Positions 11,992 to 48,942 of a stretch of 64,000 bases of DNA are shown piece after piece (within the stretch, counting starts at the first letter, position 1; each line of letters starts with the position of its first letter). The DNA is taken from the NCBI GenBank assembly GCA_041645145.1, contig JBAZQO010000001.1, positions 2,327 to 66,326 on the forward strand, read 5' to 3'. Both the position numbers and the translations under genes were made by a program. The notes beneath the pieces were generated by a model. The model was not told the origin of the DNA. It made no database searches and saw only the letters and a program-made list of their open reading frames with translations. The stretch is from Candidatus Omnitrophota bacterium (GTDB lineage: Bacteria; Omnitrophota; Gorgyraeia; Gygaellales; Profunditerraquicolaceae).

Positions 11992-13914
11992 TCAATCGCA
12001 AAAACAAGGCAAAAGACAGGGATTTTTGCACTCCCTGACCCTTTTTCTTGCCTGCACACTCTTTTCAGATTCGAAAATCTTTCTTAAGGAGTCTTTCCGG
12101 ATATTACCATAACTTTCAAAACAAGTAGCTACATCGCCGTTGTTAGCAACCAGAACCGTCTTAGCTGCATAAAGGCACTTTACATCGCCTTGGGATAAAT
12201 ACCCCCGGAAATATTTTTTTACAAGCCTGAGGTTATTCTCTGAATTACGCACAAGGAGATAATTATCTTTTTTAAATTCAAGCAATTTATCTATTACCGC
12301 ATCTAATACTGCCAGCCTCTCCTGAGGTATCCAGTATTTAGTTCCCCCCCTCCTCTCTTTCATTATTAGATTATTGGGAAGCAGGGGTTGAAACTGGATA
12401 GAATTAACATTGAGTGATTTTAAAAAAACAGCTAAGTCCAAAAGCTCTTCCAGATTCTCATTAAGAATTATAGAGATAGTGTTAAAATTTATACCTCGAC
12501 CCCTTTTCTTTAATCGGGAAAGTTTTTCCAGGGCAGCGGATGTCTTCTGGAAAGCTCCTTCGACCCCACGTATTTCATCATGAATTCCAGGGTTCAACGC
12601 GTCAAGTGAAATACTCAAAGAGAGGCTCCCCGAATTAAAATATGGCAGTAACTTATTAATAAAATATTCATTCAATATAATGCCATTAGTCAGCACGCCT
12701 ATATGGTAATTTTTTTCTTTTACAAAATCTAATATTTCAAAAATGTCCTCTCTTATAAAGGGTTCTCCGCCGGATAAAACAAATTCCCTGACTCCCCAGC
12801 CAATAGCTTCATTTATAAGATTTTTTATTTCATCCGAGGTGTACTCCCCGATTGGCTTATCTTTTCTTATTTCACAGATATTACATTTAAGATTACACCT
12901 GTGCGTAATATCCAAAATAATAACTTCCGGCTTGGGAGGATTGCTGACGGTGTTATTTTGGCCATTATTTAAGTCATTCTCCGGTATTTTTGCTGCTCTT
13001 ATATGCTCTACCGTATTACCGATTAAATAATTCACTTTATGCAACGCAAAATAAAGGAAAATTTGGAACTTTTCATATAAAGTAATGTGGGTAAGCGACC
13101 GGATTAAACGCCTGCCCAAAAGATAAGAAAAGCGCGGGATCTTGAAAAAATTTATGATTGACCCAAAAATAAAATAAGTGTTATTTTGAGTCTTTATTTC
13201 CTTTAATAGGGGGTGGTCTTTATGCACATGTTGCACCAAGTAATTCCCCCGGCCGTACATATACGCCTGTTTTAAAAATGAAATGATGTTTGTATGACAA
13301 TCGTGGAATATTTTTATATCTTGCTTATAGCTAAGCCTGCCGCCATTTTTAAAAATCCTCCAGAATAAATCTAGATCTTCACCTGCGGGAAAAGGGAACA
13401 GTTCATTGAAACCATTGACAAGATAATCTCGCTTAAAAGACACATTGCAAGTCGGGAAAAATATAGTTTCGGGCTTTCCCTTTATCTCGGTTGCTATTGC
13501 TCCGTCACTTAAAAATTGGCTAACCTTCGCCTTAATATTATGGCTGGCGACCTCAGTAGTACCCCCAATTGCTGCGATATGTTTCTCTAATCTATGCGCC
13601 TGAACCATCTGCCTGACCCAATCTTTATTCAAGATACAATCGCTATCCGTAAAACCGATTATTTCTGCAGATGCATATTTTATGCCTAAATTTCGCGCAA
13701 CAGCAGGGCCTTTGTGCTGTTGAATAAAATACCTCAAGTTAGGATTTATTTTAGAAAGCGCCTCAAGCATATCTTTAGTTCCATCATTAGAACCATCATC
13801 TATTACAATTATCTCAAAGGCATCTTTTGGATAAATCTGCGCGAATAAGGAATCGAGGCATTGTCTGAGTTTGAGCTTTCGATTATAAGTAGGAACTACT
13901 ATAGTAAAATCCAT
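11992..13914 (-). CDS. fusion protein: N-terminal GT2 glycosyltransferase + C-terminal radical SAM/SPASM domain
   Basis: N-terminus MDFTIVVPTYNRKLKLRQCLDSLFAQ...IIVIDDGSNDGT (GT2). C-terminal half: ILDITHRCNLKCNICEIR (CxxxCxxC), GGEPFIREDIFEIL, CLYAAKTVLVANNGDVATCFESYGNI...CKNPCLLPCFCD. Confidence 0.7.
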   Translation of the reverse strand: MDFTIVVPTYNRKLKLRQCLDSLFAQIYPKDAFEIIVIDDGSNDGTKDMLEALSKINPNLRYFIQQHKGPAVARNLGIKYASAEIIGFTDSDCILNKDWVRQMVQAHRLEKHIAAIGGTTEVASHNIKAKVSQFLSDGAIATEIKGKPETIFFPTCNVSFKRDYLVNGFNELFPFPAGEDLDLFWRIFKNGGRLSYKQDIKIFHDCHTNIISFLKQAYMYGRGNYLVQHVHKDHPLLKEIKTQNNTYFIFGSIINFFKIPRFSYLLGRRLIRSLTHITLYEKFQIFLYFALHKVNYLIGNTVEHIRAAKIPENDLNNGQNNTVSNPPKPEVIILDITHRCNLKCNICEIRKDKPIGEYTSDEIKNLINEAIGWGVREFVLSGGEPFIREDIFEILDFVKEKNYHIGVLTNGIILNEYFINKLLPYFNSGSLSLSISLDALNPGIHDEIRGVEGAFQKTSAALEKLSRLKKRGRGINFNTISIILNENLEELLDLAVFLKSLNVNSIQFQPLLPNNLIMKERRGGTKYWIPQERLAVLDAVIDKLLEFKKDNYLLVRNSENNLRLVKKYFRGYLSQGDVKCLYAAKTVLVANNGDVATCFESYGNIRKDSLRKIFESEKSVQARKRVRECKNPCLLPCFCD

Positions 13915-24950: not shown

Positions 24951-25581
24951 GGAGCGGGCAAATTACGCATTTAGGATCCTGCTTGCGGCAGTAATCCTTG
25001 CCCAACCTTACTAAAAGGGCATGGTATTCATTAAACATCTTCACGCTATTTTTAAGATTGCGCATAAAAATATCCTGCACCTGGGCGTAATCAGCTTCCT
25101 CTTTAATTAATCCGTGCCGGGAAAATATTCTTTTGGTGTAAGCATCCACCACGAATACCGGCTTATTCAAAGCATAGAGAAGGATCGAATCCGCTGTTTC
25201 CGGGCCTATTCCGTTTACCGAAAGCAAAAGCTTACGCAGTTGGCGGGGGTTAGCTTGCGACATTTTCTTAAGATCCCCCTTGTAAACCTCAAAAAAGAAC
25301 TTCAGGAACTCTTTAATCCGCCTGGCCTTAATATTATGGTAACCTGCGCTTTTAATCAGCGCGGAAATTTTAGCCGGGCTCATCCGGTAAAGTTTCTCCG
25401 GGCGCAACACTTTTTTAGCCTTAAGCCTGGCTATGGCTTTTTCCACATTCAACCAATTAGTACCCTGGGTAAGGATTGCTCCGATGATAACCTCAAAACT
25501 ATTCTCCGCAGGCCACCAGTGCTGCGGCCCAAATTTAGAATAAAGCCTGCGAAAAATAACCTTTAATTTCCGCTGCATCAA
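24940..25581 (-). CDS. HhH-GPD base-excision DNA glycosylase, endonuclease III-like with C-terminal 4Fe-4S cluster loop
   Basis: Helix-hairpin-helix GPD region LLSVNGIGPETADSILLYAL, catalytic Asp VVDAYTKRIF, and C-terminal Cys ladder CRKQDPKCVICPL. Confidence 0.65.
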   Translation of the reverse strand: MMQRKLKVIFRRLYSKFGPQHWWPAENSFEVIIGAILTQGTNWLNVEKAIARLKAKKVLRPEKLYRMSPAKISALIKSAGYHNIKARRIKEFLKFFFEVYKGDLKKMSQANPRQLRKLLLSVNGIGPETADSILLYALNKPVFVVDAYTKRIFSRHGLIKEEADYAQVQDIFMRNLKNSVKMFNEYHALLVRLGKDYCRKQDPKCVICPLHGQ

Positions 25582-27512
25582 TCAAGTTCCAGAGGGTTAT
25601 AACCGTAATAGGCAAAAATGGCATAAGCAGTCCCGGATACCGAACCGGTATACTTGCCTTTAGGGGTTCTCCAGCCATGCCCGGTATCCACAAAATCCTG
25701 CGTTGCGTACGGCAGGCAGCCTTCCCCCTGGCCCGAAGGAGAAGGGCTGGAAATAATCATATTCCCTAATTGTGCCAGGTAATTATCTGCTTTATCCCGA
25801 TAAGCAGCGGATTTAGCTGTTTGTCCTCCTTTAGAATAATAATCAGCCATAATTTTAAATGATACAGCCATCTGGGCTGTCCATTCGCTTGAGACCACCC
25901 CTCCCCGGGCAACATTGCGCTGCGGCGCAAAATCAAAACCCCGGATCTTAACTGTCTGGCCTCCCGGCCGGATAAAATCGACCTGGGCTTCGCAATTCTC
26001 CTCGACAAACTCCATTATTTTATCCGGGTCCATACCCAAGGTTTTAAGCCTTGCCGGGCCGATAGCGGCAATAGACCAGGCATAGGTATCTGTGGCAATC
26101 GTGGAATCACCTTTACCGCGCTTAACCGGCAGATCCTCCCGGCCATAAGTATTGCGCATCAGCCACCCTAATGTTTTTTCCGCGGCCCGGACATACTTTT
26201 CCTTATTGGTAACTTTAGCGAGCATCTCAAAAAAAGCATAAGCATCCAGATTATGCTCTGTGGAATACCAGCTCATCTGCGGGCCTCCGCGGATACCGCC
26301 ATCAACATCAGAATCCTGCAGCTTGATTATATTCCGGGCAATCTCTTCGGCTATCTCCAGGTAATTCCTGTCTTGGGTTTTCCGGGTATACTGGAGAATG
26401 GCAATACCCAGCCAGATATTCGGTCCGCAGTGCATGACATATTCCGCAGGGGAGCCGGTATCGGCATAATAAACATTAAAAAACCAACCGTTCTCCCTTT
26501 TGGCCTGATCGCTAAAAAAATCCAGCAGCTTCTTTGCCCGGTCATAATCACCGAAGTTATTAAAAATCTGGATCATCAGCGCCTGGTCATAAGTAAACGC
26601 CCAGCTGGCGATATCCTTGTCTCCTTCAAAACTCATTACTAAGCCCGTGCGTGGATTCTGGTGAATTTTAAGCCACTGGTACATCTTGTCCAGGTTTGCC
26701 TTTGTCAGGATTACCTTTTTACTATCCAAGCGCAGGGATTCTTCTTGAGCTGCCTTCTCGTTAATTTGCAACGCAGCCAGTTCCGCTTGAAAAAGATCCC
26801 TTTCCCTAACCAGCCTTAAAATTAAACCATTTAATTCCTTTGTCTTGTCAACGGCAGCAGGCGCCTGAACGCTCTTTGTCTGGGAGGCAGATTTAATTTG
26901 TGAAACCAGCGATTTGATCTTCTGCTGCAAAGCGCCTCTCTGCTGGGCTATCTGGTTTATCTTCTGCCTGGCAAGATCAGACTCATGCAATACGCCGACC
27001 AGCTCCTCAACGAGCATCTTATTCTTTTGGGTCAACTGTATATTTAAATAGGCGCCAAAAGCCAAAAAGAGGGTTAAGCAGGCGATAAACAAGGTTATTA
27101 CCGGTATAAACAGCTTCTTTGCCCGGGCATAACGCATAAGCATGTTATTCTCGGAGGGATTAATCTGTTCGTAGGATAAGCCGATAAGGTAGCGGTTGGG
27201 TGAGCCTGGAATTTCTTTTGTCCAGGCCACGCAGGTAAAAGCGACTATCGGGTTCCTAAATAAAGGCGCCTCTGTCTCTATGGATAATTTAACTTTTTTT
27301 TCTTTGATCAGGTTGAATAAATCGGGAGCAAGGCCGTTTACCGAAAGGCATATGCCACCGCGGCTGATACTGTTGGTAAATCCCTGCAGCCATGGCGAAA
27401 AAAACTGCGACCTATCCGGGCTTTCTAAACGGAACTGCACGGGAAAAACAGTATCCAGGCGGATATACTTTCTGCGCTCAAGGTCAAAATCAATTTTAGT
27501 TTTAAACCACAT
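25578..27512 (-). CDS. PilZ-domain membrane protein with coiled coil and C-terminal (alpha/alpha)6 glycoside-hydrolase-like domain
   Basis: N-terminus RRKYIRLDTVFPVQF...FTNSISRGGICL is the PilZ RxxxR...DxSxxG c-di-GMP-binding signature. One TM helix (LFIPVITLFIACLTLFLAFGAYL) and a ~130-aa heptad-rich segment follow. The ~370-aa C-terminal domain has recurring aromatic/Gly-rich helical hairpins resembling six-hairpin glycosidases. Confidence 0.5.
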   Translation of the reverse strand: MWFKTKIDFDLERRKYIRLDTVFPVQFRLESPDRSQFFSPWLQGFTNSISRGGICLSVNGLAPDLFNLIKEKKVKLSIETEAPLFRNPIVAFTCVAWTKEIPGSPNRYLIGLSYEQINPSENNMLMRYARAKKLFIPVITLFIACLTLFLAFGAYLNIQLTQKNKMLVEELVGVLHESDLARQKINQIAQQRGALQQKIKSLVSQIKSASQTKSVQAPAAVDKTKELNGLILRLVRERDLFQAELAALQINEKAAQEESLRLDSKKVILTKANLDKMYQWLKIHQNPRTGLVMSFEGDKDIASWAFTYDQALMIQIFNNFGDYDRAKKLLDFFSDQAKRENGWFFNVYYADTGSPAEYVMHCGPNIWLGIAILQYTRKTQDRNYLEIAEEIARNIIKLQDSDVDGGIRGGPQMSWYSTEHNLDAYAFFEMLAKVTNKEKYVRAAEKTLGWLMRNTYGREDLPVKRGKGDSTIATDTYAWSIAAIGPARLKTLGMDPDKIMEFVEENCEAQVDFIRPGGQTVKIRGFDFAPQRNVARGGVVSSEWTAQMAVSFKIMADYYSKGGQTAKSAAYRDKADNYLAQLGNMIISSPSPSGQGEGCLPYATQDFVDTGHGWRTPKGKYTGSVSGTAYAIFAYYGYNPLELD

Positions 27513-27588: not shown

Positions 27589-28410
27589 TTAGACAATCTC
27601 AAGGCTCAAAATATTATCTATGCGAAAGGTGCGCTCCTCTTTTTTTAAACAACAATATCCTGCAAGATACTTATGCCCCTTATCCTGTTTTATCTCTTTA
27701 GGGATAACCTGGCGCTCGGTTACTTCAGCGCTATGGGTAGAGAGGTAACGTATCTTTAATGTTGCCTTTAAATCGATGCATTCCCGGATTTTAGAGGCCT
27801 TCTGCTCGTTGAAACTTTCCAGCAAGCCGGGATTAAAAGCAAAAAGGTTGGAGAAGCCGGCAAAATCAGTTATCCCCTTGGCCTGGCAGATAGCTTTGAG
27901 TTTACCAAAAACATCCCAGGTCATCTCCACGTCGGAGAAAGCGCGGTGCTCCTGTTTTGATTTAACCCCCAGCTTATCCGCTACAAACCAAAGCGCGTAA
28001 CGGCTCAAGCCCGGTATAAGCCTTTTAGCCATAGTGAGCAGGTCAAAAACAACCATATTGTTAACCGCAGGAAGAGAGATGAGCTTAAGCTCATTATTCA
28101 AAAAACCTAAATCAAACTCCGCGTTATATGAACAAAGGCAGCTGCCCCGGATAAATTCCAAGAATTGCAGGATAACCTCTTTAGGTTCCCTGGCGCTTTG
28201 CAGCATCTGGAGAGTTATTCTATTTACCGCAAAGGCAGCTTCAGAAACAGGTTGTCCAGGATTAACCAAAGAGGAGAACGTGGCGATTCTCTCCTTGCCT
28301 TTAAACCTTAAGCCCGCTATCTCAACTATGCGGTCTCCGGTTTGCCAATTAAGCCCAGTAGTCTCAGTGTCAAATATAGTAAACTCTACATCATCAATAT
28401 CTTTATGCAT
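27589..28410 (-). CDS. DnaQ-like (DEDDh) 3'-5' exonuclease with C-terminal WYL-like domain
   Basis: Exo I FTIFDTETTGLN, Exo II SYNAEFDLGFL, Exo III H..FSDVEMT. C-terminal ~90 aa: ...KYLAGYCCLKKEERTFRIDNILSLEI resembles the WYL ligand-binding domain core. Confidence 0.6.
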   Translation of the reverse strand: MHKDIDDVEFTIFDTETTGLNWQTGDRIVEIAGLRFKGKERIATFSSLVNPGQPVSEAAFAVNRITLQMLQSAREPKEVILQFLEFIRGSCLCSYNAEFDLGFLNNELKLISLPAVNNMVVFDLLTMAKRLIPGLSRYALWFVADKLGVKSKQEHRAFSDVEMTWDVFGKLKAICQAKGITDFAGFSNLFAFNPGLLESFNEQKASKIRECIDLKATLKIRYLSTHSAEVTERQVIPKEIKQDKGHKYLAGYCCLKKEERTFRIDNILSLEIV

Positions 28411-29299
28411 TCCTGGTCACTATATAAGCGGGAATTAACCGCTCCGGGTGATATGAGAGTTTTGTTTTACGTAAATTCTCCAAGCCCGAATCATCCATAA
28501 TATTAATGTATTTATAACTCTTTAACCCTTCGCAGAACCTGCGGAAGATAAATTGCGCCAGGCCCTTGACAGAAAGGTCGGTTATCTCATAAAGCACGCA
28601 GAATGTATCATAGCTCAACCTATAGCCAAAAGTAAACCCCTTGATTTGTTTATTAACCTTAACGACAATCCCCTCAAAACCCAGCTGCCTGTAATTAGCC
28701 AGGGCGACTTTGATTACCTTACGGTTATCCTCAAGCATCCCGCAATAAATATCGTCACCGCCCTGCCCCTTACGCGCCTGTGCCCAGGAACTAAATAAGC
28801 CTAAACAATCCGCCGCGTCCGCCGGAAGCAACGCCCTTGAATCAAAATCATAATGCTTGATAAAATAATTATAAGAGGCGCGCTGGGATTTAAATTTATT
28901 TCCCCTTAATAGCGCCAAATCGCGACACACACAAAGATAATCCGGATATTTATCTTGAGCCAGATAACCTAAGGCGCGGTAATATCCCAAATCCTGCTGC
29001 CGGACATTTTCAATACGGGAGATATCTTTATTTTTATTAATACCGTCCATAATTTCAAAAGCCTGTTTTATAATTAAAGGGTTTGGCTCTTTTCCCAGCA
29101 CAGGAAGATACATGAAGCAGCCGATCTTATCGCGGAAGAATACGCAAAGGCTGTTTTGGATCAAAACCCATTGGATATCAAAGAGGGCTTTCCAGATGTA
29201 GATATCGGGAAAAGAAAACGCTGCCAGTTCGTGCCTGCCTTGGGCAAGGTATCGATTAAACAGCTTTTGGTCTTTTAAGGTTAGCTTATTCAGTTTCAT
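28403..29299 (-). CDS. DUF2156-like protein (fold related to the aminoacyl-tRNA-dependent C-terminal domain of MprF-type lysyl-phosphatidylglycerol synthases)
   Basis: The N-terminal block LTLKDQKLFNRYLAQGRHELAAFSFPDIYIWK is characteristic of the DUF2156 family. ~298 aa; overlaps the upstream gene by 8 nt. Confidence 0.4.
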   Translation of the reverse strand: MKLNKLTLKDQKLFNRYLAQGRHELAAFSFPDIYIWKALFDIQWVLIQNSLCVFFRDKIGCFMYLPVLGKEPNPLIIKQAFEIMDGINKNKDISRIENVRQQDLGYYRALGYLAQDKYPDYLCVCRDLALLRGNKFKSQRASYNYFIKHYDFDSRALLPADAADCLGLFSSWAQARKGQGGDDIYCGMLEDNRKVIKVALANYRQLGFEGIVVKVNKQIKGFTFGYRLSYDTFCVLYEITDLSVKGLAQFIFRRFCEGLKSYKYINIMDDSGLENLRKTKLSYHPERLIPAYIVTRNA

Positions 29300-29796
29300 G
29301 GGGTGAGCTTTAATTCAGCGACCTCTCTTACTTCTTCATAAGCCTGGATGATCTGCGGGTTATCTTTAAGAATTTTCAGCTGTTTTGGCGAGTTAAGGTA
29401 GGTGGAAAGATAGGTAATATAATCCTGCATCTTTGGGCTGTCTATTGTCTCGACGACATAAGGGCAGTTTAAATCAACGGTCAGAAGCACTTTGCCTTTG
29501 CGCAGATTGATCAGAAAAGGGTAGAGCTGGCATTCAAAGGGCCGCAGATTGTAAATGCGGCATTGGTTATTCGCGTTGTTAAAAAAGGGGCAAATAAATC
29601 CATCGCCGCCAGGATCAGCCACAGCTTGGATACGCCGGTCTATAGATATAGAGGCTGCGGGTATGCCTTCCCTGTCCACCAACTCCTGCATCTCCTCATC
29701 CAATAAGCATGGGCTCCACACTGAATTTGCTTCTTTAAAGCGACAGCAAGAGCGGCATTTAAGGCAAAACTCCTGCGGCACAAATTGTTTGATCAT
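29296..29796 (-). CDS. YkgJ-family putative zinc/iron-chelating CxxCxxCC protein
   Basis: N-terminal CLKCRSCCRF matches the CxxCxxCC motif of PF03692-type proteins. Additional conserved Cys at CPFF, CRIY, CQLY, CPYV. Confidence 0.5.
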   Translation of the reverse strand: MIKQFVPQEFCLKCRSCCRFKEANSVWSPCLLDEEMQELVDREGIPAASISIDRRIQAVADPGGDGFICPFFNNANNQCRIYNLRPFECQLYPFLINLRKGKVLLTVDLNCPYVVETIDSPKMQDYITYLSTYLNSPKQLKILKDNPQIIQAYEEVREVAELKLTP

Positions 29797-29939: not shown

Positions 29940-31454
29940 TTAGAATTTTAATTCCGCATAAAATTCAATCTGGTAAGCGTTATTCGCCCGGCCATCCCCG
30001 CGCACAAAAGGGCTAAACAGGCTTCCCTCTGCATCATCGCGGCTTTCTTTATAAAACCTGCCCGGGAAAAAACAACCACCCAGAAAACCAACCGTCATAT
30101 GCCTGTTTATCTTATAATCAATATAAAGATCCGCTTCATATCCCAGGTCGCGGGAGAGGTATTTCCCCTGGCCGTCTAAAGTTCCCACCGGACGGTTAAA
30201 TGCCCTTAGATAATAGCCGTACAAACTTACGCAAAGCTTATCCGTAAAATTATAATCAAAGCCTATTGAAGGCATGATTAGGTTTTCAAAATCACCTGAG
30301 AAAAATGTTTTTGGCCGCGGTACTCCGTAATTCAGACCATAACCTCCACCCATCGCTACAATAGGAAGCATATCTGCATTACTGCTGCTTATTGTATCCC
30401 CCAGGTTCATGTTGGTGGGGGAAAAATAACTAAAAGCGCGGTTTTTCCCCGAAACATACAGTGCCGTCGGGTCCCCCGCCATATCCGGCGTTACTTTATT
30501 GCCCGAGCAAAGCAAGAACTGCAATTCCGGGACGAATTTTCCCAGCACATAATCCAATCCGGAATAAAACATGTATCCGGTGTGCGCGATATCTTTATAA
30601 GCGCTATCCTGGCTCTGGGCGTATCCGAAATTATGCGCTGCCTCTAACTTTAAAGAGAAATCCTCTCCCTTAAACTTCCAGGCAGTGCCAAATGTCCCCA
30701 ACAGGTCTCTTTTTATGGGCGCCGCAAAAAGATTATCCCGCTTGCCATTAGAGGTATAATCCGCCAACATGCCTACATACGGCCAAAAAGTCTGCTTACC
30801 CGCGGTGATCTTAACGTCCGTAGAGAAGAAATTAGCCGCGTTAGGTTCGTATTTCTGGCCCTGCTCATTTTCCTGTTTAATATACGGGCCTAATTGATTT
30901 TTGTAAACCAGGTCCGAGCGGCAATAATAAAGGCGCCAGAGTAAATCTTGCGTTTCTTTATACAGGGTAATCCCGTAATTTTCATAATTGCCGTTAAGAC
31001 TGAAACCATTGCCTACTTCGTAGATATACAGCCCGGCTTTAAGGCCAAAGTTACCAAATATCCGGGAATCAAACCAGAATTCTTCAATCTGCGGAAGCAG
31101 TTCTGCGTTACGGTATTTCTCAATCCTGCCCCCGGAATTAATCAGCGTGTTGTGGATAAAAATAGGCGCGCTGTAATCATAAGGGCCGTTGCGCTCAAGC
31201 TTGATAAAAAACTTGTTTCCTGAATCTTTAAAATCCGCGCTAAAAGCAAAACTGTAATCTATCCCCAGATAGGTGGTATGGTCATCTTTATTGTGGCTAT
31301 CCAGATCCGCTACGTTCTTAAAACTTACCAGGTCGGTGCGCAAATAGGTATCTAATCCCAACGCCAGATGCTCAGTATTCAGCAGTTCGTAGCTGTGTGC
31401 GCAAGGAATAAAACTCAGGGCTAAAATTAAAACAAGCCAGGATTTTCTTAACAT
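29940..31454 (-). CDS. outer-membrane beta-barrel protein (secreted, C-terminal Phe)
   Basis: Signal peptide MLRKSWLVLILALSFIPCAHS. Alternating amphipathic beta-strand pattern rich in Y/G/N, and a terminal ...YAELKF aromatic residue typical of BamA-dependent OMPs. Confidence 0.5.
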   Translation of the reverse strand: MLRKSWLVLILALSFIPCAHSYELLNTEHLALGLDTYLRTDLVSFKNVADLDSHNKDDHTTYLGIDYSFAFSADFKDSGNKFFIKLERNGPYDYSAPIFIHNTLINSGGRIEKYRNAELLPQIEEFWFDSRIFGNFGLKAGLYIYEVGNGFSLNGNYENYGITLYKETQDLLWRLYYCRSDLVYKNQLGPYIKQENEQGQKYEPNAANFFSTDVKITAGKQTFWPYVGMLADYTSNGKRDNLFAAPIKRDLLGTFGTAWKFKGEDFSLKLEAAHNFGYAQSQDSAYKDIAHTGYMFYSGLDYVLGKFVPELQFLLCSGNKVTPDMAGDPTALYVSGKNRAFSYFSPTNMNLGDTISSSNADMLPIVAMGGGYGLNYGVPRPKTFFSGDFENLIMPSIGFDYNFTDKLCVSLYGYYLRAFNRPVGTLDGQGKYLSRDLGYEADLYIDYKINRHMTVGFLGGCFFPGRFYKESRDDAEGSLFSPFVRGDGRANNAYQIEFYAELKF

Positions 31455-31772: not shown

Positions 31773-32231
31773 TTATAATCCGGATAGCTTCCCCAGGATA
31801 ATCAGAGTAAAAACCATTACAAAAAGCGCAACCGTTTCAGTAATACCCAAAACTGCCAGGTAATTTCCGAAACCCTTGCCAGTCTCACCCATAGCATCGC
31901 AGGCACAGGCAGCGCATTTACCTTGGAAATAAGCGGAAAGGCCTATTGCCATGCCGGCAAAAGCACCTACTCCCCAAAGATATTGCCCTTTATTGGCCAG
32001 TTCGATCATCTTGGTCATTACGATATTGCCATAAATTGTCTGCGTTAGAGGCGCACCGACCAAAGCAACCAGCAAGAATGAAGCGCTTTTATTCTGGTTG
32101 AAGTTTTTCTTCCATGCCCCTATTGCAGCCATTCCTGCTACACCTGCCCCTGCGGCAGAGCCCAAAGCTGAAAGACCAAGCACTAGCCCTAACCCCAAAT
32201 CCTTAAACTGTATTAAAGCCCCTGTTTCCAT
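31773..32231 (-). CDS. atpK: V/A-type ATP synthase proteolipid subunit K (duplicated 4-TM c subunit)
   Basis: 152 aa with four hydrophobic helices. Helix 2 carries LTQTIYG, helix 3 carries YFQG, and helix 4 carries GITETVALF with the conserved carboxylate. Confidence 0.8.
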   Translation of the reverse strand: METGALIQFKDLGLGLVLGLSALGSAAGAGVAGMAAIGAWKKNFNQNKSASFLLVALVGAPLTQTIYGNIVMTKMIELANKGQYLWGVGAFAGMAIGLSAYFQGKCAACACDAMGETGKGFGNYLAVLGITETVALFVMVFTLIILGKLSGL

Positions 32232-32314
32232 CTTAATTCTCCTTTAAATGAGCACTAAACTTACGGGGTACGAAGTCACGAAGTGAGGCGTAAGTTTATG
32301 TGCGGGAACATACT

Positions 32315-34090
32315 TTATTCTTCCTTACAAAACGGTTTATAGGCAAAACCATCCCAGACAACATTGGCGTGGCTGCAAAACTCCAGCACATTAAGCCTTA
32401 CCCCATGGACTAAAACCGACATCGGCCCCAAGATAATATTAAGTGCATGCCCACAGGCAATAATTAAAGCGGCTATAATTATAGTTAAAAAGTCGCCTTT
32501 TTTAATTATTCCGGCAGCCATGGCGTTAAAAGCATCTGCGATAGCTACGCCTGCCAAACCCACCGCAAAAAGACGGATATAGGAAACTACGTCGGTAAAG
32601 TTATTTACCAGGGTTAAAGCTATTGTACCTAAGCCTGCGCCGATTGTCTTAAATATGTTTTTTTGCGGGTTGGTAAAAAATAAAATCAAAATTAAGCCGG
32701 CTATAATCAACCAGTTTCCGAATAATGGGAAAGCATTGCTCAAAAGCAAGCTTTTGGCTAAGAAAAATACTGCCCAGATAATAAAAATCCAGCCTATATC
32801 CGCCAGGGCTGATAATGTCGGAGCCTTTAGTATTGCCCTCCAGCCATGAGCCAGAGATAGGTGTAGCGCACCAATAAAAAAACATAACGCCTGGACAAAG
32901 GCCGCATTATGCAGCGCCGGAACCAGAGGTTTTACCCCTATATCGAACAACCATTCCTGGCCAAAAAATGTTCCAGTCAATAACCCCCATATAATAGCGC
33001 AAAAACTCAGGTTATAAAAGAGAAAAAATACGCTTTTATCTTTAACTTTATATCCAATTTTCTTCTGTAGCCAAAAGTTAAGCAGCAAATAAACCGCTCC
33101 GTATCCAGCATCACCAATAAGCATGCCAAAAAAAATACTAAAAAATATAATAAAAAGCGGGCTGATATCAAGTTCACGGTACCCCGGAATAAGCTCCAGC
33201 AGTTTTAGTACCGGTTTTATAAGTGAAATCCAGGCGGGATTACGGACCAAGGTTGGTACGGCATCTTCCTCATTGGGCTCAAGGGTTAAGATTCCCCAGC
33301 CGTTTTGTTTTGCCTGCTTAACCAACATATCTTCTACATCAATTGGTATATAGCCTTTCAAATATACAATCTCATTTGCCTGCCCCATACCTTTTAAGAC
33401 AGAATAAAAATCTTTTTGATTTAAAAAGGCTTCTTCGACGGCAATAAAATCACGATTATAAACCAAATGCGCGGATAGCTCTTCTCTTATGTTTTGCATA
33501 ACCTTAGTATCTTCACTAAACTTGTTTCTCATGCCAGATAGTGATAATTTAGGTAATTCTAATTCCTTAAAACCAATCTCTATATTTTCTGTTGCCACAA
33601 CTAGACAATTTATTAATGCGCCCTGTACAGAAATCTTCTTTAATAGTATACCTGGCGGCAAACTTTTGATCTTATCCTTGGGAATCTGGTAAAATTTAAT
33701 CAGAACATTCTTTTGTTGCAGAGCCTTTATCTGGGCAGGGTCAAAATCACCCCAAGACTCCCATAAATCTATCCAGTTATTCAAGGTTACCGAATACTCC
33801 CTTAATTGATCATACCTTTTCTGTAAATCAATGACGTGGCGACAGACGGCATCCAAATCTTCTGATTTACGGATTATATGTTTTCCCGGATGTTTCTGGT
33901 TAGCCGCCGATAAAACAGACCTGGCTTGTTCAATCAGATTTAGCTTCTCGCTGATTTCATTAAGCTCAGAGCCACAAGGAATATTCTCGTGCTCAACATG
34001 AACTACCCCCAAGACACGTAAATCATCCAAAGCGCCTTGGGCATGGTTCTGCTGGATAAGCAGAAATACTTTTTTCATTTTAACAATCAT
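32315..34090 (-). CDS. atpI: V/A-type ATP synthase subunit I (a-subunit)
   Basis: 591 aa. A soluble N-terminal coiled-coil half is followed by a polytopic C-terminal half containing the conserved Arg-bearing helix (...SYIRLFAVGLAG...). Confidence 0.8.
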   Translation of the reverse strand: MIVKMKKVFLLIQQNHAQGALDDLRVLGVVHVEHENIPCGSELNEISEKLNLIEQARSVLSAANQKHPGKHIIRKSEDLDAVCRHVIDLQKRYDQLREYSVTLNNWIDLWESWGDFDPAQIKALQQKNVLIKFYQIPKDKIKSLPPGILLKKISVQGALINCLVVATENIEIGFKELELPKLSLSGMRNKFSEDTKVMQNIREELSAHLVYNRDFIAVEEAFLNQKDFYSVLKGMGQANEIVYLKGYIPIDVEDMLVKQAKQNGWGILTLEPNEEDAVPTLVRNPAWISLIKPVLKLLELIPGYRELDISPLFIIFFSIFFGMLIGDAGYGAVYLLLNFWLQKKIGYKVKDKSVFFLFYNLSFCAIIWGLLTGTFFGQEWLFDIGVKPLVPALHNAAFVQALCFFIGALHLSLAHGWRAILKAPTLSALADIGWIFIIWAVFFLAKSLLLSNAFPLFGNWLIIAGLILILFFTNPQKNIFKTIGAGLGTIALTLVNNFTDVVSYIRLFAVGLAGVAIADAFNAMAAGIIKKGDFLTIIIAALIIACGHALNIILGPMSVLVHGVRLNVLEFCSHANVVWDGFAYKPFCKEE

Positions 34091-34725
34091 GCTATCGCCT
34101 CTTCTAAAGCCAGCTCCTCAATCTTTCTTTTAGCAATTTTACAGCGGCCCACGGCATTAGCCATCTGGTCACCTATATAAATCTTAATCAACCGAATATC
34201 CTCTTCTGCCTGCGGAATTTTAACCTTTTCAAAAAGATTAACCCGTTGAGTCGTAATGCGCAGTTCATGCCGCAATATGGCAATACCTTCCTGACGCATC
34301 AAGATCTCTTTTTTTAAAATAATAGTTTCCCTAAGCGCCTCGATTGCTGCGTCAATCCATAAAGGGGTAGAGAACAAATCATATTCGCCTGTGTCAAATT
34401 CCAACGCATCAAATACAGGGATATCCACACCGGCGATATTCTTAAAATGGGTATTTGTTTTGCTTGGCAATAAAAATGGTTTCAGGTCAACTTCCGGCTG
34501 ATTGAGCAAACCAATCCAGTGGTCAATCGCCTGTCTTTTTTTAATCAGAGATTGTTTTCTTTCTTCGAGGATTAAATTCTGCTGCAGGATTTCCAGCTGC
34601 AACTGCTGTTTTTTCAATTGCAAAGTAGGTAGATAGCGCTGGAATTGTTTTAATGCATCGCGCTGCCTCTTTAATTCACCCTTAGTAAGCCTTATCTTTG
34701 CCATTATTTCTTCAGCCAGCCCCAT
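34087..34725 (-). CDS. atpD: V/A-type ATP synthase subunit D (central stalk)
   Basis: 212 aa, highly helical with long coiled coil (LQLKKQQLQLEILQQNL...). It sits between B and I as in V-type operons. Confidence 0.7.
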   Translation of the reverse strand: MGLAEEIMAKIRLTKGELKRQRDALKQFQRYLPTLQLKKQQLQLEILQQNLILEERKQSLIKKRQAIDHWIGLLNQPEVDLKPFLLPSKTNTHFKNIAGVDIPVFDALEFDTGEYDLFSTPLWIDAAIEALRETIILKKEILMRQEGIAILRHELRITTQRVNLFEKVKIPQAEEDIRLIKIYIGDQMANAVGRCKIAKRKIEELALEEAIA

Positions 34726-34775
34726 TAGAAACAGGTTACCAGAGGCAACCGTGAGGTATCTCTGATGTATTGTTT

Positions 34776-36068
34776 CTAACGGGGCCAGTACTGCTCAACA
34801 ATTGAACGCTTGATCCCGGTTTCCTCCGGGCTGAAAGAATCCGCTAAGATTTGCCAACCCAGATCTAAGGCTTTTTCCAAAGGGATATTTACTTTAAGCG
34901 ACATCATGTTCTTTTCAAAAAGCTCCCCGTATTTAAGCAGTTTCTTATCCCAGGCGCTCATCTGAAAACCCATGGATTGTTTTTCAACAGTCTGGCGATA
35001 GCTGGCAAAAAGCTGGATCATCGTATCCATAATAGCGCGGTGGTCTGGCCGGGTCTTACCGTTTACCTGCTGCTTGAGCCGGCTTAATGAACCAAACGGT
35101 TCAATAACCCCATCTTTAAGATAAAACTGGCCCTCCGTAATATAACCTGTATTATCCGGGACAGGGTGTGTTACATCATCGCCCGGCATGGTAGTTGCCG
35201 CAAGAATCGTGATCGAACCTGCCCCTTCAAAATCAACTGCCTTTTCATAACGGCTGGCCAACTGACTGTAAAGATCCCCGGGATAACCGCGGTTAGAGGG
35301 GACCTGTTCCATGGTTATGGAGATTTCTTTTAAGGCGTCGGCAAAATTGGTCATATCGCTTAACAGGACTAATACGCGTTGGCCTTTTAAAGCAAAATCC
35401 TCGGCTACTGCCAGGGCCATATCCGGCACTAAAAGGCATTCCACCACCGGATCAGAAGCGGTATGCATAAAAAATATGGAACGGCTTAAAGCCCCGTGCT
35501 GCTTTAATGTCTCCTTAAAAAATAAATAATCATCATATTTTAGGCCCATGCCGCCTAGAATAATAATGTCGATCTCGGCCTGAATAGCGATCCTGGCTAA
35601 TAGTTCATTGTAAGGCTGGCCGGCAATGGAGAAAATAGGCAGCTTCTGCGATTCCACCAAAGAATTAAATACATCGATCATGGGGATGCCGGTGCGGATC
35701 ATCTTATTAGGCACGATTCTTTTTACCGGGTTAACCGGCGGGCCGCCTATATCAATCATATTCTCGGAAAGTTCCGGGCCACGGTCTAAAGGCATACCGC
35801 TGCCGTTAAATATGCGGCCTAATAGATTCTCTCCCGTGCCTACGCGCATAGGGCGGCCTAAGAAACGCACCTTATCCCCCGTAGAAATACCCCGGCTTCC
35901 GGCAAAGACTTGCAAAGACACTTTCCTGCCGTCAATACGGATGACCTGGGCAAAGCTTGAGCCCTGGCGCACCGAGACCTGGGCGACATCATTATAACCT
36001 ACCCCTTCAGCCTCAACGGTGATCACGTCTCCGGCAATCTGAATAATATTGGTATATACCTTTTGCAT
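34776..36068 (-). CDS. atpB: V/A-type ATP synthase subunit B (regulatory)
   Basis: 430 aa. The nucleotide-binding fold lacks a full P-loop, as expected for B subunits. Conserved blocks [32 protein letters not shown]. Confidence 0.85.
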
Positions 36069-36069
36069 T

Positions 36070-37824
36070 TTATTTTTCTTCCGGGATTCTCTTCTCTTCC
36101 AGTAATATAGAGATCTCTTCTTCGGTCTGCCTAAACTCTGCGCTCATCCAGGCGCTTGAATTCCAGGTACGCAACAGCTGCCTTAATCTCTGAAAAAAGC
36201 GCAAAGCCTTTTCTTTGTCCTCTAATTTAAAGTCGCTAAGCAGTATATTATGGATAAAATCAAATATATAAACCTGCCTTTCTTGAGATGTGGCCTCATC
36301 CACCGCATCAAAAGCATTCTGCTGCAGATAAACAAAATCAAAAAACTCACCCTTAAGATACCCTATGTAATCTTTAAGTGAGATCCCTTCCTCTCCGATA
36401 ACCTTCATCATCTGGGAGATCTCATAGCTTCTGCGCAAGGCCTCATGCCCGTAATTTTCTTTTTTCTCGTCGATAAATCCCTTATATTTGCTCCAGCTGA
36501 TCAGCGGGTCGATCGCCGGATACCTGCGCGCATCGGAACGTTCGCGGGAAAGGCCGTGAAATGCCCCCACTACTTTAAGCGTGGCCTGGGTAACCGGCTC
36601 TTCGAAGTTTCCTCCGGCAGGGCTGACTGCCCCTCCGATAGTAACCGAACCGAAAGAGCCGTCATGCAACCTGACTAACCCGGCCCTTTCATAAAAAGAG
36701 GCGATGCGCGATTCAAGATAGGCAGGAAATGCCTCTTCTCCCGGAATCTCTTCTAATCTTCCGGACATCTCGCGCATGGCCTGGGCCCAGCGCGAAGTTG
36801 AATCCGCAAGCAGCAAAACATTTAAACCCATCTGGCGGTAATACTCCGCCAGTGTCACCGCGGTATAAACGCTGGATTCCCTGGCAGCAACAGGCATAGA
36901 GCTTGTATTGCAGATGATCACTGTGCGGTCAATAAGCGGTGAGTTTGTGCGCGGATCAATTATCTCAGGGAAGCTCTTAAGTGTCTCAACTACCTCTCCG
37001 GCGCGCTCGCCGCAGGCGGCAATAATCACAATATCCACCTCTGCGTGGCGGCTGGTTAGTTGCTGTAAAACGGTTTTTCCCGCGCCAAACGGCCCGGGTA
37101 TGCAATAAGTGCCTCCGCGGGCCACCGGAAACAAGGAATCAATAAGGCGCATCTTGGTTATCAGCGGCTCGCCGGGCTTTAGTTTCTCGGCATATGCCTG
37201 GATAGGAATCTTAACCGGCCAAATCTGTTGTAAAAAAACATCATGTATTCTCCCCGCGGCATTTCTAACTTGAGCAATCGATTGCTTTAAATTATACTTT
37301 CCTGGCGCAGCGACATTTGTTACCTCTAGACTACCAGAAAGCGCGAAAGGAACCATAATATAATGCTTAAAGATTTTCTCTGGGACAAAACCCAACCAAC
37401 TGCCGGCTAAAACTTTATCCCCTAGTTTTACCAAAGGAGTAAAATCCCATTGCGCTTCATCAGAAAGAGCTTCGAGATATACGCCACGTTTAAGAAAAAA
37501 ACCACATTTTTCCGCCAATGCCGGAAGAGGATTTTGCAAACCGTCAAAAATCTGACCCAACAATCCCGGGCCCAACTCAACAGAAAGCAATTCATCACTA
37601 AATTCAACTTCTTGGCCAACCCTTAAACCCGCGGTATTTTCATAAACCTGCATCTCGGCGCGATTTTCTCTTACGCGGATTACCTCTGCCTTTAAACGCT
37701 CAGCGCCATGCAAAATATAGGCAACCTCATTCTGAATAATATGGCCATCGACTTCTGCGACAACCATATTGGCATTAACTTTTACGACGCGCCCGGTTCT
37801 TTTCTTTTCCATATTAGTTTGCAA
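36070..37824 (-). CDS. atpA: V/A-type ATP synthase catalytic subunit A
   Basis: 584 aa. P-loop GPFGAGKT. N-terminal beta-barrel plus the non-homologous insert typical of A subunits. Walker B region [17 protein letters not shown]. Confidence 0.9.
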
Positions 37825-38344
37825 CTACTTGATTAAATAAACGTTCTTTATCCGTCTTTTGTGCTTTATCCCAACGCTCTAAAATCTTCAGTTTTAAAAG
37901 ATAAGTCAGAAGAAAATCAAAATCAAAATAATGGCCAAGGCTTAAAGATTCTAGAAAATTCCACCTGGCTTGATCCAGGATCTTTTCCGCTCCCAATATA
38001 GAGGTGCTTCTATAAGCAGTCATAGCTACATGGATAATATACGCCTCGGGATCATCGGGAAGACGGGTAAATTTTAAAGCATCTACCTTCTTACGCCTGG
38101 CCCGCGCGCGGGCCAATTCATTTCTTAAGCCTATCTCAAAGTTAGCCCATTTCCCCAGAATGCCTGTTGCTGCGGCGTTTAAAAAAGATGCCTCTTTATA
38201 ACAGGCATTACGCAAAAGCTCAATCTCTGTTTCCGGGATTAACCCCTTACACTTAGCAAAGAAGTCCTCTAAGCTAAAAGGCGGCCGGGAAGCAAAACTA
38301 AGCATTGGCAGGCTAGAGATCAGATATGTATAATAAGCTCCCAT
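37814..38344 (-). CDS. hypothetical protein at the subunit C/F position of the V-ATPase operon (DUF2764-like?)
   Basis: 176 aa, helical. Conserved location between atpE and atpA, which mirrors the chlamydial atpE-hypothetical-atpA arrangement. Confidence 0.4.
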   Translation of the reverse strand: MGAYYTYLISSLPMLSFASRPPFSLEDFFAKCKGLIPETEIELLRNACYKEASFLNAAATGILGKWANFEIGLRNELARARARRKKVDALKFTRLPDDPEAYIIHVAMTAYRSTSILGAEKILDQARWNFLESLSLGHYFDFDFLLTYLLKLKILERWDKAQKTDKERLFNQVVAN

Positions 38345-38947
38345 TTATTCGGATTTTAAGACCCTGTTTAGCTCAGGCCTTAAGGAGCCGGATATATACT
38401 CTGTTAAAGCCTGGGTGCTAAAATCAAAGGTGGACTTACCGGAATCAAAGCTGATCATAAACCCGCTATCAATTTCATCCGCGGACTTTAAGATTATCTG
38501 TTTTTTTGTTTCCTCCGCCAACTGCTTTAAAAATCCCTTTTCTAATTTATCCTTATCTTGCCGAGCAAGGGAAATAACAATCTGGCTGCCTAAAGAAAGC
38601 GGCGCGTTCTTAATCAAGTCCCTAATAATTCTGGTTAATTCTTCTACGGTCAAAGCCTGACGTATATTTAACTTAACCAACCTGTCCAGCATAGAATTGA
38701 TTTCTTTTCTTAAACTAATCAGTAAATCTCGGCCTGCCTGTTTTAGAGAGGCGTTGGTGGAATTATCCAGTTTTTTCGCCTCAAAGTTAGCCTGCTCAAT
38801 AATTTTCTCAGCCTGCATTTTTGCCTCAGCAATTATTCTTTGAGCCCTGGAATCTGCTTCAGCTTTTATTTGCGCAGCCTGCTTTTCAGCCGCCACTATC
38901 CCTTCCTGTTGTATCTTGGCAATCAAATCCTTAATCTCTTCTGCCAT
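38345..38947 (-). CDS. atpE: V/A-type ATP synthase subunit E (peripheral stalk)
   Basis: 200 aa. N-terminal long charged helix MAEEIKDLIAKIQQEGIVAAEKQAAQIKAEADSRAQRIIAEAKMQAEKI typical of subunit E. First gene of the V-ATPase block. Confidence 0.7.
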   Translation of the reverse strand: MAEEIKDLIAKIQQEGIVAAEKQAAQIKAEADSRAQRIIAEAKMQAEKIIEQANFEAKKLDNSTNASLKQAGRDLLISLRKEINSMLDRLVKLNIRQALTVEELTRIIRDLIKNAPLSLGSQIVISLARQDKDKLEKGFLKQLAEETKKQIILKSADEIDSGFMISFDSGKSTFDFSTQALTEYISGSLRPELNRVLKSE

Positions 38948-39626
38948 ATAAATCTCCTAAAAGTTCTTCTGTTTTCGCCAGTGGGTTATCCGCCTTTAAT
39001 ATCGGCCTGCCAATTACCAAAAAATCGCTTCCTGCTTTTACTGCCTGCTTAACGGTGGCGGTTCTTTTTTGATCATCCGCGGCAGATTTATCCGGCCGTA
39101 TCCCGGGCGTAATGATAAAAAAATCTTTTTTTATTTTCTTACGCAAAAGACCGGCCTCTTTAACTGAACAGACTATGCCGTCTAAACCGCTCTCTATGCC
39201 TTTTCTTGCTAAAACCAGCACCTCTTTGGGTTTTGCATGGCTGCTGGTTAAAACCGTGACCCCGATCAATAATGGCCTGGTTGCGTTTGTTGCCTTTGCC
39301 TCTGCTTCTGCGGAAACAACAGCAGCCTCTAGCATTTCTTTGCCTCCGGAAATATGCAAGGTAAGCATCCTGACTTTATGGCGGACTGCCGCAGCCACTG
39401 CCTGGGCTACGGTATTGGGAATATCAAAATACTTCAGGTCTAGGAAAACCTCGGCGCCTTTTTTATGGATCAATTCAATGATCTGGGGGCCGTAAGCAGT
39501 AAAAAGATGGCTGCCTACCTTATAAATCTTTATCTTTGGATAAAGCTTGTCCACAAAACCTGCGGCGCTCTCTATAGTATCTACGTCCAAAGCAAGGATA
39601 ATCTCAGGCTTTCTTAGCTCTCGCAT
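38931..39626 (-). CDS. pyrF: orotidine-5'-phosphate decarboxylase
   Basis: IILALDVDTIESAAGFVDKL...KIYKVG, FLDLKYFDIPNTV (catalytic Lys in DxKxxD), ~231 aa. Overlaps atpE start by 17 nt. Confidence 0.8.
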   Translation of the reverse strand: MRELRKPEIILALDVDTIESAAGFVDKLYPKIKIYKVGSHLFTAYGPQIIELIHKKGAEVFLDLKYFDIPNTVAQAVAAAVRHKVRMLTLHISGGKEMLEAAVVSAEAEAKATNATRPLLIGVTVLTSSHAKPKEVLVLARKGIESGLDGIVCSVKEAGLLRKKIKKDFFIITPGIRPDKSAADDQKRTATVKQAVKAGSDFLVIGRPILKADNPLAKTEELLGDLYGRRD

Positions 39627-40537: not shown

Positions 40538-40542
40538 CTGTT

Positions 40543-42804: not shown

Positions 42805-42834
42805 AATCTTTCCCTATATTCTGGCTACTACCTG

Positions 42835-44409: not shown

Positions 44410-44864
44410 TTATCTCCTAAGATTTTTTTGGACTGCGCAAGGGCTTCTTCGACCGTAGAAACTTTAATAACCCCCTTAATATCCCAGGAGCCTAAACTAA
44501 TCACCGGGATCCCAAACTGCAAACAATAGGCGATCTCAGAAAGCGTGCCGGCCTCACCCGGAAGGGCTATTACCAGGTCCGCAGCCTTTACCACCAGCAC
44601 ATTCCTGGCTAGCCCCATGCCTGTGGGGATAACTATATCTACAAATGCATTGGCGTCTTTCTTGTTATAACCAGGTATAATACCAATAGTTAGGCCGCCT
44701 CCAGCTTTAAATCCCTGGCAAACCGCCTTCATTGTTCCCCCTAAACCGCCAGATACAAGGATATCAACCACTTTAGCCAATTTTATGCCTAAATTATGGG
44801 CTAATTGCTCCACTTCTGCATTACAAATGCGTCCACCGATCACTGAGACTATCTTTTTTTGCAT
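44406..44864 (-). CDS. LOG-family / TIGR00725-like Rossmann-fold nucleotide-binding protein
   Basis: 152 aa. VSVIGG...VSGGLGGTMKAV...PGEAGTLSE blocks resemble the LOG/YvdD/DprA-like phosphoribohydrolase fold. Confidence 0.45.
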   Translation of the reverse strand: MQKKIVSVIGGRICNAEVEQLAHNLGIKLAKVVDILVSGGLGGTMKAVCQGFKAGGGLTIGIIPGYNKKDANAFVDIVIPTGMGLARNVLVVKAADLVIALPGEAGTLSEIAYCLQFGIPVISLGSWDIKGVIKVSTVEEALAQSKKILGDN

Positions 44865-44871
44865 ATTTTTT

Positions 44872-44943: not shown

Positions 44944-44947
44944 ATAT

Positions 44948-46186: not shown

Positions 46187-46188
46187 GT

Positions 46189-48931: not shown

Positions 48932-48942
48932 GGACTTAGGAG

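Follow-up and report, generated by a model that had tools for sequence, protein, structure and literature searches.

Can a single polypeptide carry a receptor for the second messenger cyclic di-GMP (c-di-GMP) inside the cell and a glycosidase-like domain on the far side of the membrane, and what would the one then do to the other? This question is raised by an open reading frame (ORF) in a 64-kb stretch of Candidatus Omnitrophota DNA (64,000 nucleotides of contig JBAZQO010000001.1, hereafter the window), whose features had been proposed from the letters alone in what we call the original prediction. The ORF lies at 25578-27512 on the minus strand, exactly as proposed, and encodes 644 amino acids (aa) in four parts: a PilZ domain, one transmembrane (TM) helix, a heptad stalk of 127 residues and a six-hairpin barrel. 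We regard this fusion as a PilZ receptor whose output would be new in lying outside the cytoplasm, in a barrel from a six-hairpin family that is still unclassified.

The ORF is a real gene rather than a chance reading frame, since more than 1,416 homologs were retrieved from among 5.8 billion proteins and a scan with one genome per GTDB species found the PilZ-barrel fusion in 461 species genomes, nearly all from Omnitrophota. The best 120 homologs were nearly all full-length (640-667 aa, 59-92% identity), and the named ones among them came almost all from Candidatus Omnitrophota metagenome-assembled genomes, with the labels "hypothetical" or "PilZ domain-containing". One homolog had been labelled by the Joint Genome Institute (JGI) "Glycosyl hydrolase family 76/PilZ domain", so that automatic annotation had caught both domains. 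NCBIfam gave no meaningful match to the 644-aa protein, and no second copy of the PilZ or barrel domain was found within the window. Mean column identity was 82% in the barrel, the best-conserved part, 70% in the PilZ domain and about 60% in the TM helix and stalk. The features of the protein are as follows, with structural assignments taken from AlphaFold2 (AF2) models where indicated.

25578-27512, minus strand: whole ORF, 644 aa and stop codon
27114-27479, minus strand: PilZ domain, aa 12-133 (Pfam, PDB profile match to MotI, AF2 and Foldseek)
27459-27476, minus strand: RRKYIR, the (R)RxxxR c-di-GMP-binding motif with R13, R14 and R18, aligned to MotI RRQYVR
27354-27371, minus strand: SISRGG, aa 48-53, the [D/N]hSxxG position with Ser at D/N (register from alignment)
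27045-27113, minus strand: TM helix, aa 134-156 (LFIPVITLFIACLTLFLAFGAYL), the sole segment whose hydropathy exceeds 1.6, and a helix in the AF2 model
26664-27044, minus strand: coiled-coil stalk, aa 157-283, with a hinge and indel hot spot at 216-220 (AF2 helices, heptad frame)
25581-26663, minus strand: (alpha/alpha)6 six-hairpin domain, aa 284-644, whose first helix begins within the stalk, near aa 270
26586-26588, minus strand: D309 (YDQA), candidate catalytic residue at the start of a barrel helix, conserved family-wide
26412-26426, minus strand: GPNIW, aa 363-367, aligned opposite the DDN(I/V)W of glycoside hydrolase family 76 (GH76)
26256-26258, minus strand: E419 (STEHN), candidate catalytic residue, in 100% of non-fused homologs
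26088-26090, minus strand: D475 (GDSTIATD), candidate catalytic residue, in 100% of non-fused homologs
25884-25886, minus strand: E543 (SSEWT), candidate catalytic residue, conserved family-wide

The PilZ domain, its anchor and its stalk

Judged by its sequence motifs, the fused family is a canonical PilZ family. The Pfam model PF07238 matched the window protein over aa 12-129 (E=2.6e-4), although its 21.7 bits fell 0.8 bit short of the curated cutoff of 22.5; PilZ matches were found in 30 of 39 aligned relatives (E<=0.01, best 2.8e-8), and many relatives carry a precomputed PF07238 assignment. A profile of the N-terminal 132 residues matched Bacillus subtilis MotI/YpfA (5vx6) with both motifs aligned, MotI RRQYVR pairing with RRKYIR and MotI N-I-S-A-G-G with the N-N-I-S-r-G-G of the fused family. 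The AF2 model of aa 1-132 (pLDDT 86) showed beta-barrel strands at 17-117 followed by a C-terminal helix at 119-131, and when it was compared with the PDB by Foldseek, the top 22 matches were all c-di-GMP-binding PilZ domains, among them MotI, PA 4xrn, Alg44, MrkH, PlzA, YcgR, CeSA and BcsA.

The two motifs were counted in 57 representatives of the fused family (50% clusters). R14, R18 and G53 were invariant (57/57), and the RxxxR and second-motif positions both align with those of known PilZ domains. The RxxxR part of the signature proposed originally therefore stood, but the quoted NSISRGG was one residue off register, the aligned motif being S48-I-S50-R-G-G53. Position 48 was N in 29 representatives, D in 27 and S in one, the window protein; position 50 was S in 40, G in 10, N in four and A in three. 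Ser48 is common to the window protein and its six closest listed relatives (P0001-P0006, 80-92% identity), and the next clade out carries NxGxxG. The window protein retained R13, R14, R18, S50, G52, G53 and a QGFT stretch specific to the fused family. Because of the Ser at the D/N position, binding of c-di-GMP by the window protein itself is plausible but less secure than for the family.

The single TM helix that had been foreseen was borne out, aa 134-156 being the only hydrophobic segment, and the heptad stalk proposed at about 130 residues was measured at 127. R127, R130, K132 and K133 flank the TM helix on its N-terminal side, which by the positive-inside rule places the PilZ domain in the cytoplasm and the barrel outside it. 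The extracytoplasmic location of the barrel was further supported by its free relatives, since 35 of 60 non-fused, Met-starting members had an N-terminal signal-like hydrophobic segment; several of the others look like truncated calls. The topology therefore agrees with the one predicted. It had been called unusual, which it is, but it has precedents in Alg44, the alginate co-polymerase of Pseudomonas aeruginosa with its PilZ-TM-periplasmic domain arrangement, and in the inside-out receptor LapD.

In the full-length AF2 model (pLDDT 78), one unbroken helix at 119-215 comprised the C-terminal helix of the PilZ domain, the TM helix and the first half of the stalk; after a short break, a second helix at 221-283 entered the barrel. 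A single heptad frame ran throughout the first stalk half, with a/d pairs N157/L160, N164/L167, L171/V174, S178/A181, I185/I188, R192/L195 and I199/L202. The juxtamembrane segment 157-178 was conserved, and N157 and N164, both at heptad "a" positions, were either invariant or above 90% in conservation. Parallel coiled-coil dimers typically retain Asn at "a", and on this basis the stalk is probably a parallel dimer. Length variation in the stalk was confined to the hinge at 216-220, where insertions ranged from +1 to +25 with +7 the commonest. An antiparallel hairpin like that of membrane fusion proteins (MFP) was also considered; an indel hot spot at the stalk centre would suit it, but the insertion lengths of +7, +11, +14 and +25 do not discriminate. 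Non-fused barrel homologs start at the equivalent of aa ~272-284 (YxWLxxxQxxxTGL), which indicates that the end of the stalk is the first barrel helix.

The six-hairpin barrel and its family

The C-terminal domain had been described as (alpha/alpha)6-barrel-like in sequence character, and the AF2 model confirmed a twelve-helix (alpha/alpha)6 six-hairpin fold, in which no one family stood out. Comparison with the candidate folds GH8, GH15 and the N-acyl-glucosamine-2-epimerase (AGE) family thus upheld the fold, but placed the barrel outside GH8, GH15, GH76 and the AGE family alike; the AGE profile PF07221 did not include it. The mycobacterial methylmannose polysaccharide endo-hydrolase MmpH (7QSJ) and AGE-family epimerases were 10-12% identical to the barrel, with no significant sequence match.

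GH76 was the sole detectable sequence relative. The weak Pfam matches of the barrel were chiefly to this family (PF03663, E 1.2e-4; Pectate_lyase_2 was weaker), a GH76 match was present in 21 of 39 relatives, and the best matches of the barrel-family profile in the PDB, 4mu9 at 4.8e-6 and 6u4z at 2.4e-4, were both GH76 structures; a direct phmmer search of the PDB gave a marginal GH76-like match only. A canonical membrane-anchored GH76 endo-alpha-1,6-mannanase might be read from these matches, but this reading is essentially excluded. The PF03663 score was 22.2 bits for the full protein and 24.5 for the domain alone, below the gathering cutoff of 25.9, with one hairpin aligned. Furthermore, the GH76 catalytic pair is the DD of DDN(I/V)W, as the inactive-variant PDB entries D125N, D136A/D137A and D164N attest, and this motif aligned to G363-P364-N-I-W, also when the D136A/D137A mutant sequence was used. 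Examples of the pair are D124/D125 of BcGH76 and D136/D137 of Salegentibacter GH76A. In the barrel family, G363 was present in 100% and P364 in 77-88% of members. Since the catalytic Asp-Asp is replaced by Gly-Pro and the score lies below the cutoff, the barrel cannot be counted as a GH76 enzyme. The GH76 alpha-1,6-mannanases Aman6 of Bacillus circulans and BT3792, BT2949 and BT3782 of Bacteroides share with it the fold, the N(I/V)W and the next hairpin, whereas the fusion barrel has Gly-Pro together with D309, E419, D475 and E543.

Residues conserved in both fused and free forms were Y308-D309, G363-P364-N365-x-W367, E419, D423, D469, D475, D527, E543, Y602 and W614; H420 was invariant in the fused subfamily only. 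In the AF2 model, D309, N365, E419, D475 and E543 each start an alternate helix (helices from 307, 362, 418, 475 and 542), and it is at these helix starts that six-hairpin enzymes hold their active sites. From the model we infer that the conserved acids would cluster in one pocket. By sequence comparison, the barrel is an unclassified family, distantly GH76-like, with its own conserved acids D309, E419, D475 and E543. Two loops, aa 460-472 (KRGKGDSTIATD; 26097-26135, minus strand) and aa 590-640 (SGQGEGCLPYATQDxVDTGHGWxTPKG; 25590-25742, minus strand), were modelled with pLDDT below 50; such strongly conserved, poorly modelled loops may form a lid or a ligand-dependent element. A C507-C599 disulfide was considered within the barrel and dropped, C599 not being conserved in free homologs.

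The family extends well beyond the fusion. When aa 285-644 were scanned by HMMER against 1.84 billion cluster representatives, 886 matched at E<=1e-3 and 105 at E<=1e-30. Among 150 listed representatives, 56 had the PilZ-TM N-terminus; the other listed carriers comprised proteins of 370-450 aa, giants of 2,000-7,900 aa and several-domain proteins, one of which includes a subtilase domain. In the non-fused proteins, no Pfam model covered the domain. The giants matched at E 1e-24 to 1e-52, and the named ones were partial Omnitrophota proteins and one with a Deltaproteobacteria label. The giant Omnitrophota proteins ("Archaeovorins") thus carry the same barrel family; they differ in being probably surface-exposed and implicated in predation, whereas the fusion, at 644 aa, belongs to the inner membrane and carries a PilZ domain itself. 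A GH76-like fold has been predicted inside a giant Omnitrophota protein (West-Roberts et al., bioRxiv 10.1101/2023.11.21.568195), which fits the recurrence of the present barrel family in such giants.

Proposed control from inside the cell and its alternatives

These results establish what the domains are, their folds, the conservation of the motifs, one TM helix and the export of the barrel family; from them we infer binding of c-di-GMP, dimerisation, catalysis, the direction of signalling and the substrate. As the most probable single account, we tentatively propose that the fusion processes glycans in the periplasm as an enzyme tethered to the membrane, probably a glycanase, and that c-di-GMP controls it from the inside out. 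The PilZ domains would bind c-di-GMP in the cytoplasm as a pair, and the C-terminal PilZ helix would run unbroken through the TM helix into the coiled-coil stalk of a bitopic inner-membrane protein. The end of the stalk would itself be the first helix of the exported barrel, and c-di-GMP could set the activity, the orientation or the oligomeric state of the barrel. Inside-out control is the most economical arrangement, because the sole cytoplasmic part is a receiver, a rigid conserved helix leads from it to the barrel, and the barrel is conserved in the manner of an enzyme. The original prediction had left a choice between a c-di-GMP-gated polysaccharide-processing enzyme and a sensor; the enzyme is favoured here. 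A link to a polysaccharide synthase was not found.

The genomic context bears on both the substrate and the partners. Across 81 loci at 55-83% identity the neighbourhood was as in the window, with the shared order CxxCxxCC protein, LPG_synthase_C (DUF2156), DnaQ-like exonuclease, PilZ fusion, HhH-GPD DNA glycosylase, M20 (an ArgE/DapE-type deacylase), PAC2 and HAD. The HhH-GPD gene came next downstream in 71 of the 74 loci with downstream sequence, at a median gap of 6 nt, and in the window its ATG is overlapped by one base by the TGA stop of the fusion. This synteny is of a housekeeping kind, conserved and functionally uninformative, and a family 2 glycosyltransferase (GT2) synthase was not among the conserved neighbours across the 81 loci.

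Seven divergent fused members were examined, and the six that were compared with the window genes were 33-45% identical over the matched stretch. In loci L085 and L088, the fusion gene stood last in a co-directional string composed of a major facilitator superfamily transporter or a substrate-binding protein with two permeases, a 630-aa TIM-barrel glycosidase (GH2_C/GH72 Pfam matches; closest PDB relative a GH158), two secreted proteins of ~200 aa, a second TIM glycosidase, a TPR/PKD protein and the fusion. In L087 the order was GH94 (nearest to cellobiose phosphorylase, E 1e-146), substrate-binding protein, two permeases, TIM glycosidase, fusion and two small secreted proteins, and in L086 and L089 a GH2_C-like gene and two proteins with a small secreted domain lay upstream. 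L090 was window-like and L091 was too short to judge. In five of the seven divergent loci, the surroundings of the fusion look like a beta-glucan-utilisation locus, and a beta-glucan-type glycan would accordingly be the lead for a substrate; no homologs of these partner genes were found within the window. The BcsA- or Alg44-like coupling to polysaccharide synthesis first suggested was not sustained, given the housekeeping context of the window, the want of a conserved synthase neighbour and the catabolic-looking beta-glucan loci of the divergent lineages.

Several observations weigh against control by c-di-GMP or against catalysis. No GGDEF, EAL or HD-GYP gene was found in the window, whether by regular expression over all ORFs or by Pfam over essentially all those of at least 150 aa. 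The regular expression gave just two hits, both chance occurrences of E[AV]L[ILVM]R, one within a radical SAM enzyme and the other within a protein without Pfam match. Nor was there a c-di-GMP riboswitch, Rfam finding four tRNAs only. Ser48 occupies the D/N position of the second motif, and the motif Ser is Gly in about half of the close relatives. The conserved acids matched no known GH catalytic constellation, with the GH76 Asp-Asp gone; the most conserved loops (460-472 and 590-626) were modelled at low AF2 confidence; and the window-type neighbours (DnaQ-like, HhH-GPD, M20, PAC2 and HAD) carry no glycan signal. The lack of turnover genes in the window says little on the genome as a whole. 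A GGDEF regular expression also found nothing over 1.1 Mb of related loci, which is uninformative since all of them are the same syntenic region. Many giant Omnitrophota proteins have been reported with GGDEF domains and with pilZ genes downstream (West-Roberts et al., bioRxiv 10.1101/2023.11.21.568195).

The main rival, unlikely in our estimate although a serious contender, is an adaptor of the Alg44 type, in which PilZ with bound c-di-GMP would engage a partner in the cytoplasm or the inner membrane, such as a glycan exporter, importer or synthase. The barrel would then not be regulated itself, but would serve the same envelope complex constitutively, as an editing enzyme or a glycan-holding subunit. 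Alg44 has the same order of parts (N-terminal cytoplasmic PilZ, one TM helix, periplasmic C-terminal domain), and its PilZ domain is among the top structural matches of the fusion PilZ (4rt0, E 3.7e-4). PilZ domains usually act via protein-protein contacts, and the PilZ C-terminal helix of Alg44 has been implicated in dimerisation (bioRxiv 10.1101/814665). Possible partners can be named as well: a glycan-export cluster (Glycos_transf_4, amine-oxidase-like protein, ABC-2 permease and ABC ATPase) lies 1 kb downstream of the fusion in L085 and also in the window, at 13.9-21 kb and 3.4-13 kb downstream; in L087 and L088 the fusion is preceded by co-directional genes for sugar ABC importers; and a porin whose Alginate_exp match is weak, encoded upstream of the fusion in the window and present in 25 of 81 loci, adds a little. 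However, no partner gene is adjacent in all lineages. Alg44 has an HlyD/MFP-like periplasmic domain and is encoded in the alg operon alongside the Alg8 synthase, whereas the fusion has a six-hairpin barrel, no HlyD match and neither an adjoining nor a conserved GT2 synthase, and the continuous helix from PilZ to barrel with its conserved juxtamembrane stalk fits transmembrane coupling at least as well.

Two further readings each give up one half of the proposed mechanism. It is doubtful that the PilZ domain of the window lineage has ceased to bind c-di-GMP and been kept as a structural or dimerisation module of a tethered enzyme. The Ser48 of the window protein against D or N in 56 of 57 representatives, the SxGxxG of its closest relatives, its position just under the Pfam cutoff and the missing turnover genes in the window would all suit such a loss, but R13, R14, R18, S50, G52, G53 and QGFT are all kept, the PilZ region is still 70% conserved, and Ser is still able to donate a hydrogen bond. 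PilZ domains in fusion proteins also generally keep binding, according to the PilZ survey (bioRxiv 10.1101/814665). More improbable again is a barrel that serves as a non-catalytic glycan receptor, sensor or anchor and reports or tethers without cleavage: the GH76 dyad is missing and no known GH active-site pattern was matched, but four acids and several aromatics are conserved in fused, secreted and giant forms alike, as is typical of active sites, and PilZ is a receiver, not a transmitter, with no cytoplasmic output domain to take up an outside-in signal.

The proposed control of the exported barrel from the cytoplasm can also be set beside systems other than Alg44. In LapD of Pseudomonas fluorescens, cytoplasmic c-di-GMP binding is relayed across the inner membrane to a periplasmic domain. 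The inside-out concept is thus shared, but LapD works through a degenerate EAL domain, a HAMP relay and the sequestration of a periplasmic protease, and no sequence or fold relationship of the fusion to it was found. BcsA-PilZ with BcsZ (GH8) and Listeria PssE with PssZ are c-di-GMP-controlled exopolysaccharide systems with a periplasmic or extracellular (alpha/alpha)6 glycanase, and the BcsA PilZ domain and PssZ were both among the structural matches of the fusion. In these systems, receptor and glycanase are separate and the receptor gates a synthase, whereas in the fusion both are in one polypeptide and no synthase is linked.

Known PilZ receptors work on the cytoplasmic side, where they gate synthases, motors or transcription factors. 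If the proposal holds, the fusion would be the first PilZ receptor with a covalently attached extracytoplasmic enzyme as its output, and would represent a compact, single-polypeptide form of inside-out c-di-GMP signalling, in which PilZ is tied by a continuous helix to an exported enzyme-like domain. Omnitrophota are mostly uncultured, probably host-dependent nanobacteria, in which second-messenger signalling would then be tied directly to glycan degradation or envelope remodelling. If catalytic, the barrel would found a new GH family with a catalytic apparatus unlike that of GH76, and the 644-aa protein would be a tractable handle on a domain otherwise buried in proteins of 10,000-40,000 aa. 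The fullest form of the proposal, that c-di-GMP switches from inside an exported glycan-cleaving enzyme of an unclassified GH family whose module is shared with giant predation-associated proteins, is in our judgement quite unlikely to hold in every part. A PilZ fusion to a glycosidase-like domain was not listed in the PilZ survey (bioRxiv 10.1101/814665), and literature searches on PilZ with GH76 and on PilZ with Omnitrophota turned up no account of the fused family.

Neighbouring genes and the rest of the window

Beside the fusion in five divergent Omnitrophota loci, a secreted domain of ~165 aa, ending ...GGFxxV...NPxGxxFYLDDIxYE, occurred in two copies per locus:

L085, 4383-5737: pair of ~165-aa secreted domains
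L088, 4032-5421: pair of the same domain
L087, 10843-12087: pair of the same domain
L086, 5552-7798: pair of the same domain
L089, 5301-8068: pair of the same domain

It was 41-66% identical between loci, better conserved than the PilZ-fusion proteins there. No Pfam model and no PDB sequence match were found for it apart from one faint CBM11 match (E 3e-3), and from its sequence it is probably an uncharacterised carbohydrate-binding module.

Every substantial ORF of the window reads from the minus strand, and only one 2-kb bin, 56-58 kb, lacks a negative GC skew. Around the fusion gene, a scan for promoters and terminators gave signals not above shuffled expectation. Its upstream neighbour (27589-28410, minus strand) encodes a 273-aa DnaQ-like 3'-5' exonuclease with a C-terminal WYL domain; the counterpart in locus L001 is 195 aa long and has no WYL domain on record. 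Next to it, at 28403-29796 (minus strand), a stand-alone LPG_synthase_C (DUF2156, MprF C-terminal-like) is paired with a CxxCxxCC zinc/iron-chelating protein, and this pair was upstream of the fusion in 52-55 of the 81 loci. The 504-aa product of 29940-31454 (minus strand), about 2.4-2.6 kb upstream of the fusion and present in 25 of the 81 loci, is a probable outer-membrane beta-barrel. Its reading as an AlgE-like porin was rejected, the Alginate_exp match (E 2.3e-4) scoring 20.5 against 25.2 bits, with no PDB match and a presence in those 25 loci only.

Downstream, 1527-22177 (minus strand) holds a large glycan-biosynthesis cluster that is unusually dense in radical SAM genes, with eight radical SAM/SPASM proteins. 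These include a GT2-radical SAM-SPASM fusion (11992-13914), a radical SAM-methyltransferase fusion (7541-9517) and one B12-binding protein; the rest of the cluster comprises an ABC-2 permease, a 904-aa ABC ATPase, TPR, an amine-oxidase-like flavoprotein, Glycos_transf_4 and GT4. In the divergent locus L085, some of these cluster genes come immediately after the PilZ fusion.

At the other end of the window, GyrA (59660-63415, minus strand; 1,251 aa) is split by an intein with Intein_splicing and LAGLIDADG_3 homing endonuclease domains at aa ~130-563, and the C-terminal end of GyrB lies just upstream of it (63417-63971). A 2,545-aa ORF at 49216-56853 (minus strand) had no Pfam match at E<=1e-4 and is without the six-hairpin domain. 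A V-type ATPase operon occupies 31773-38947 and is followed by pyrimidine-biosynthesis genes at 38931-48961, with an Fpg glycosylase and a PEMT-like methyltransferase between.

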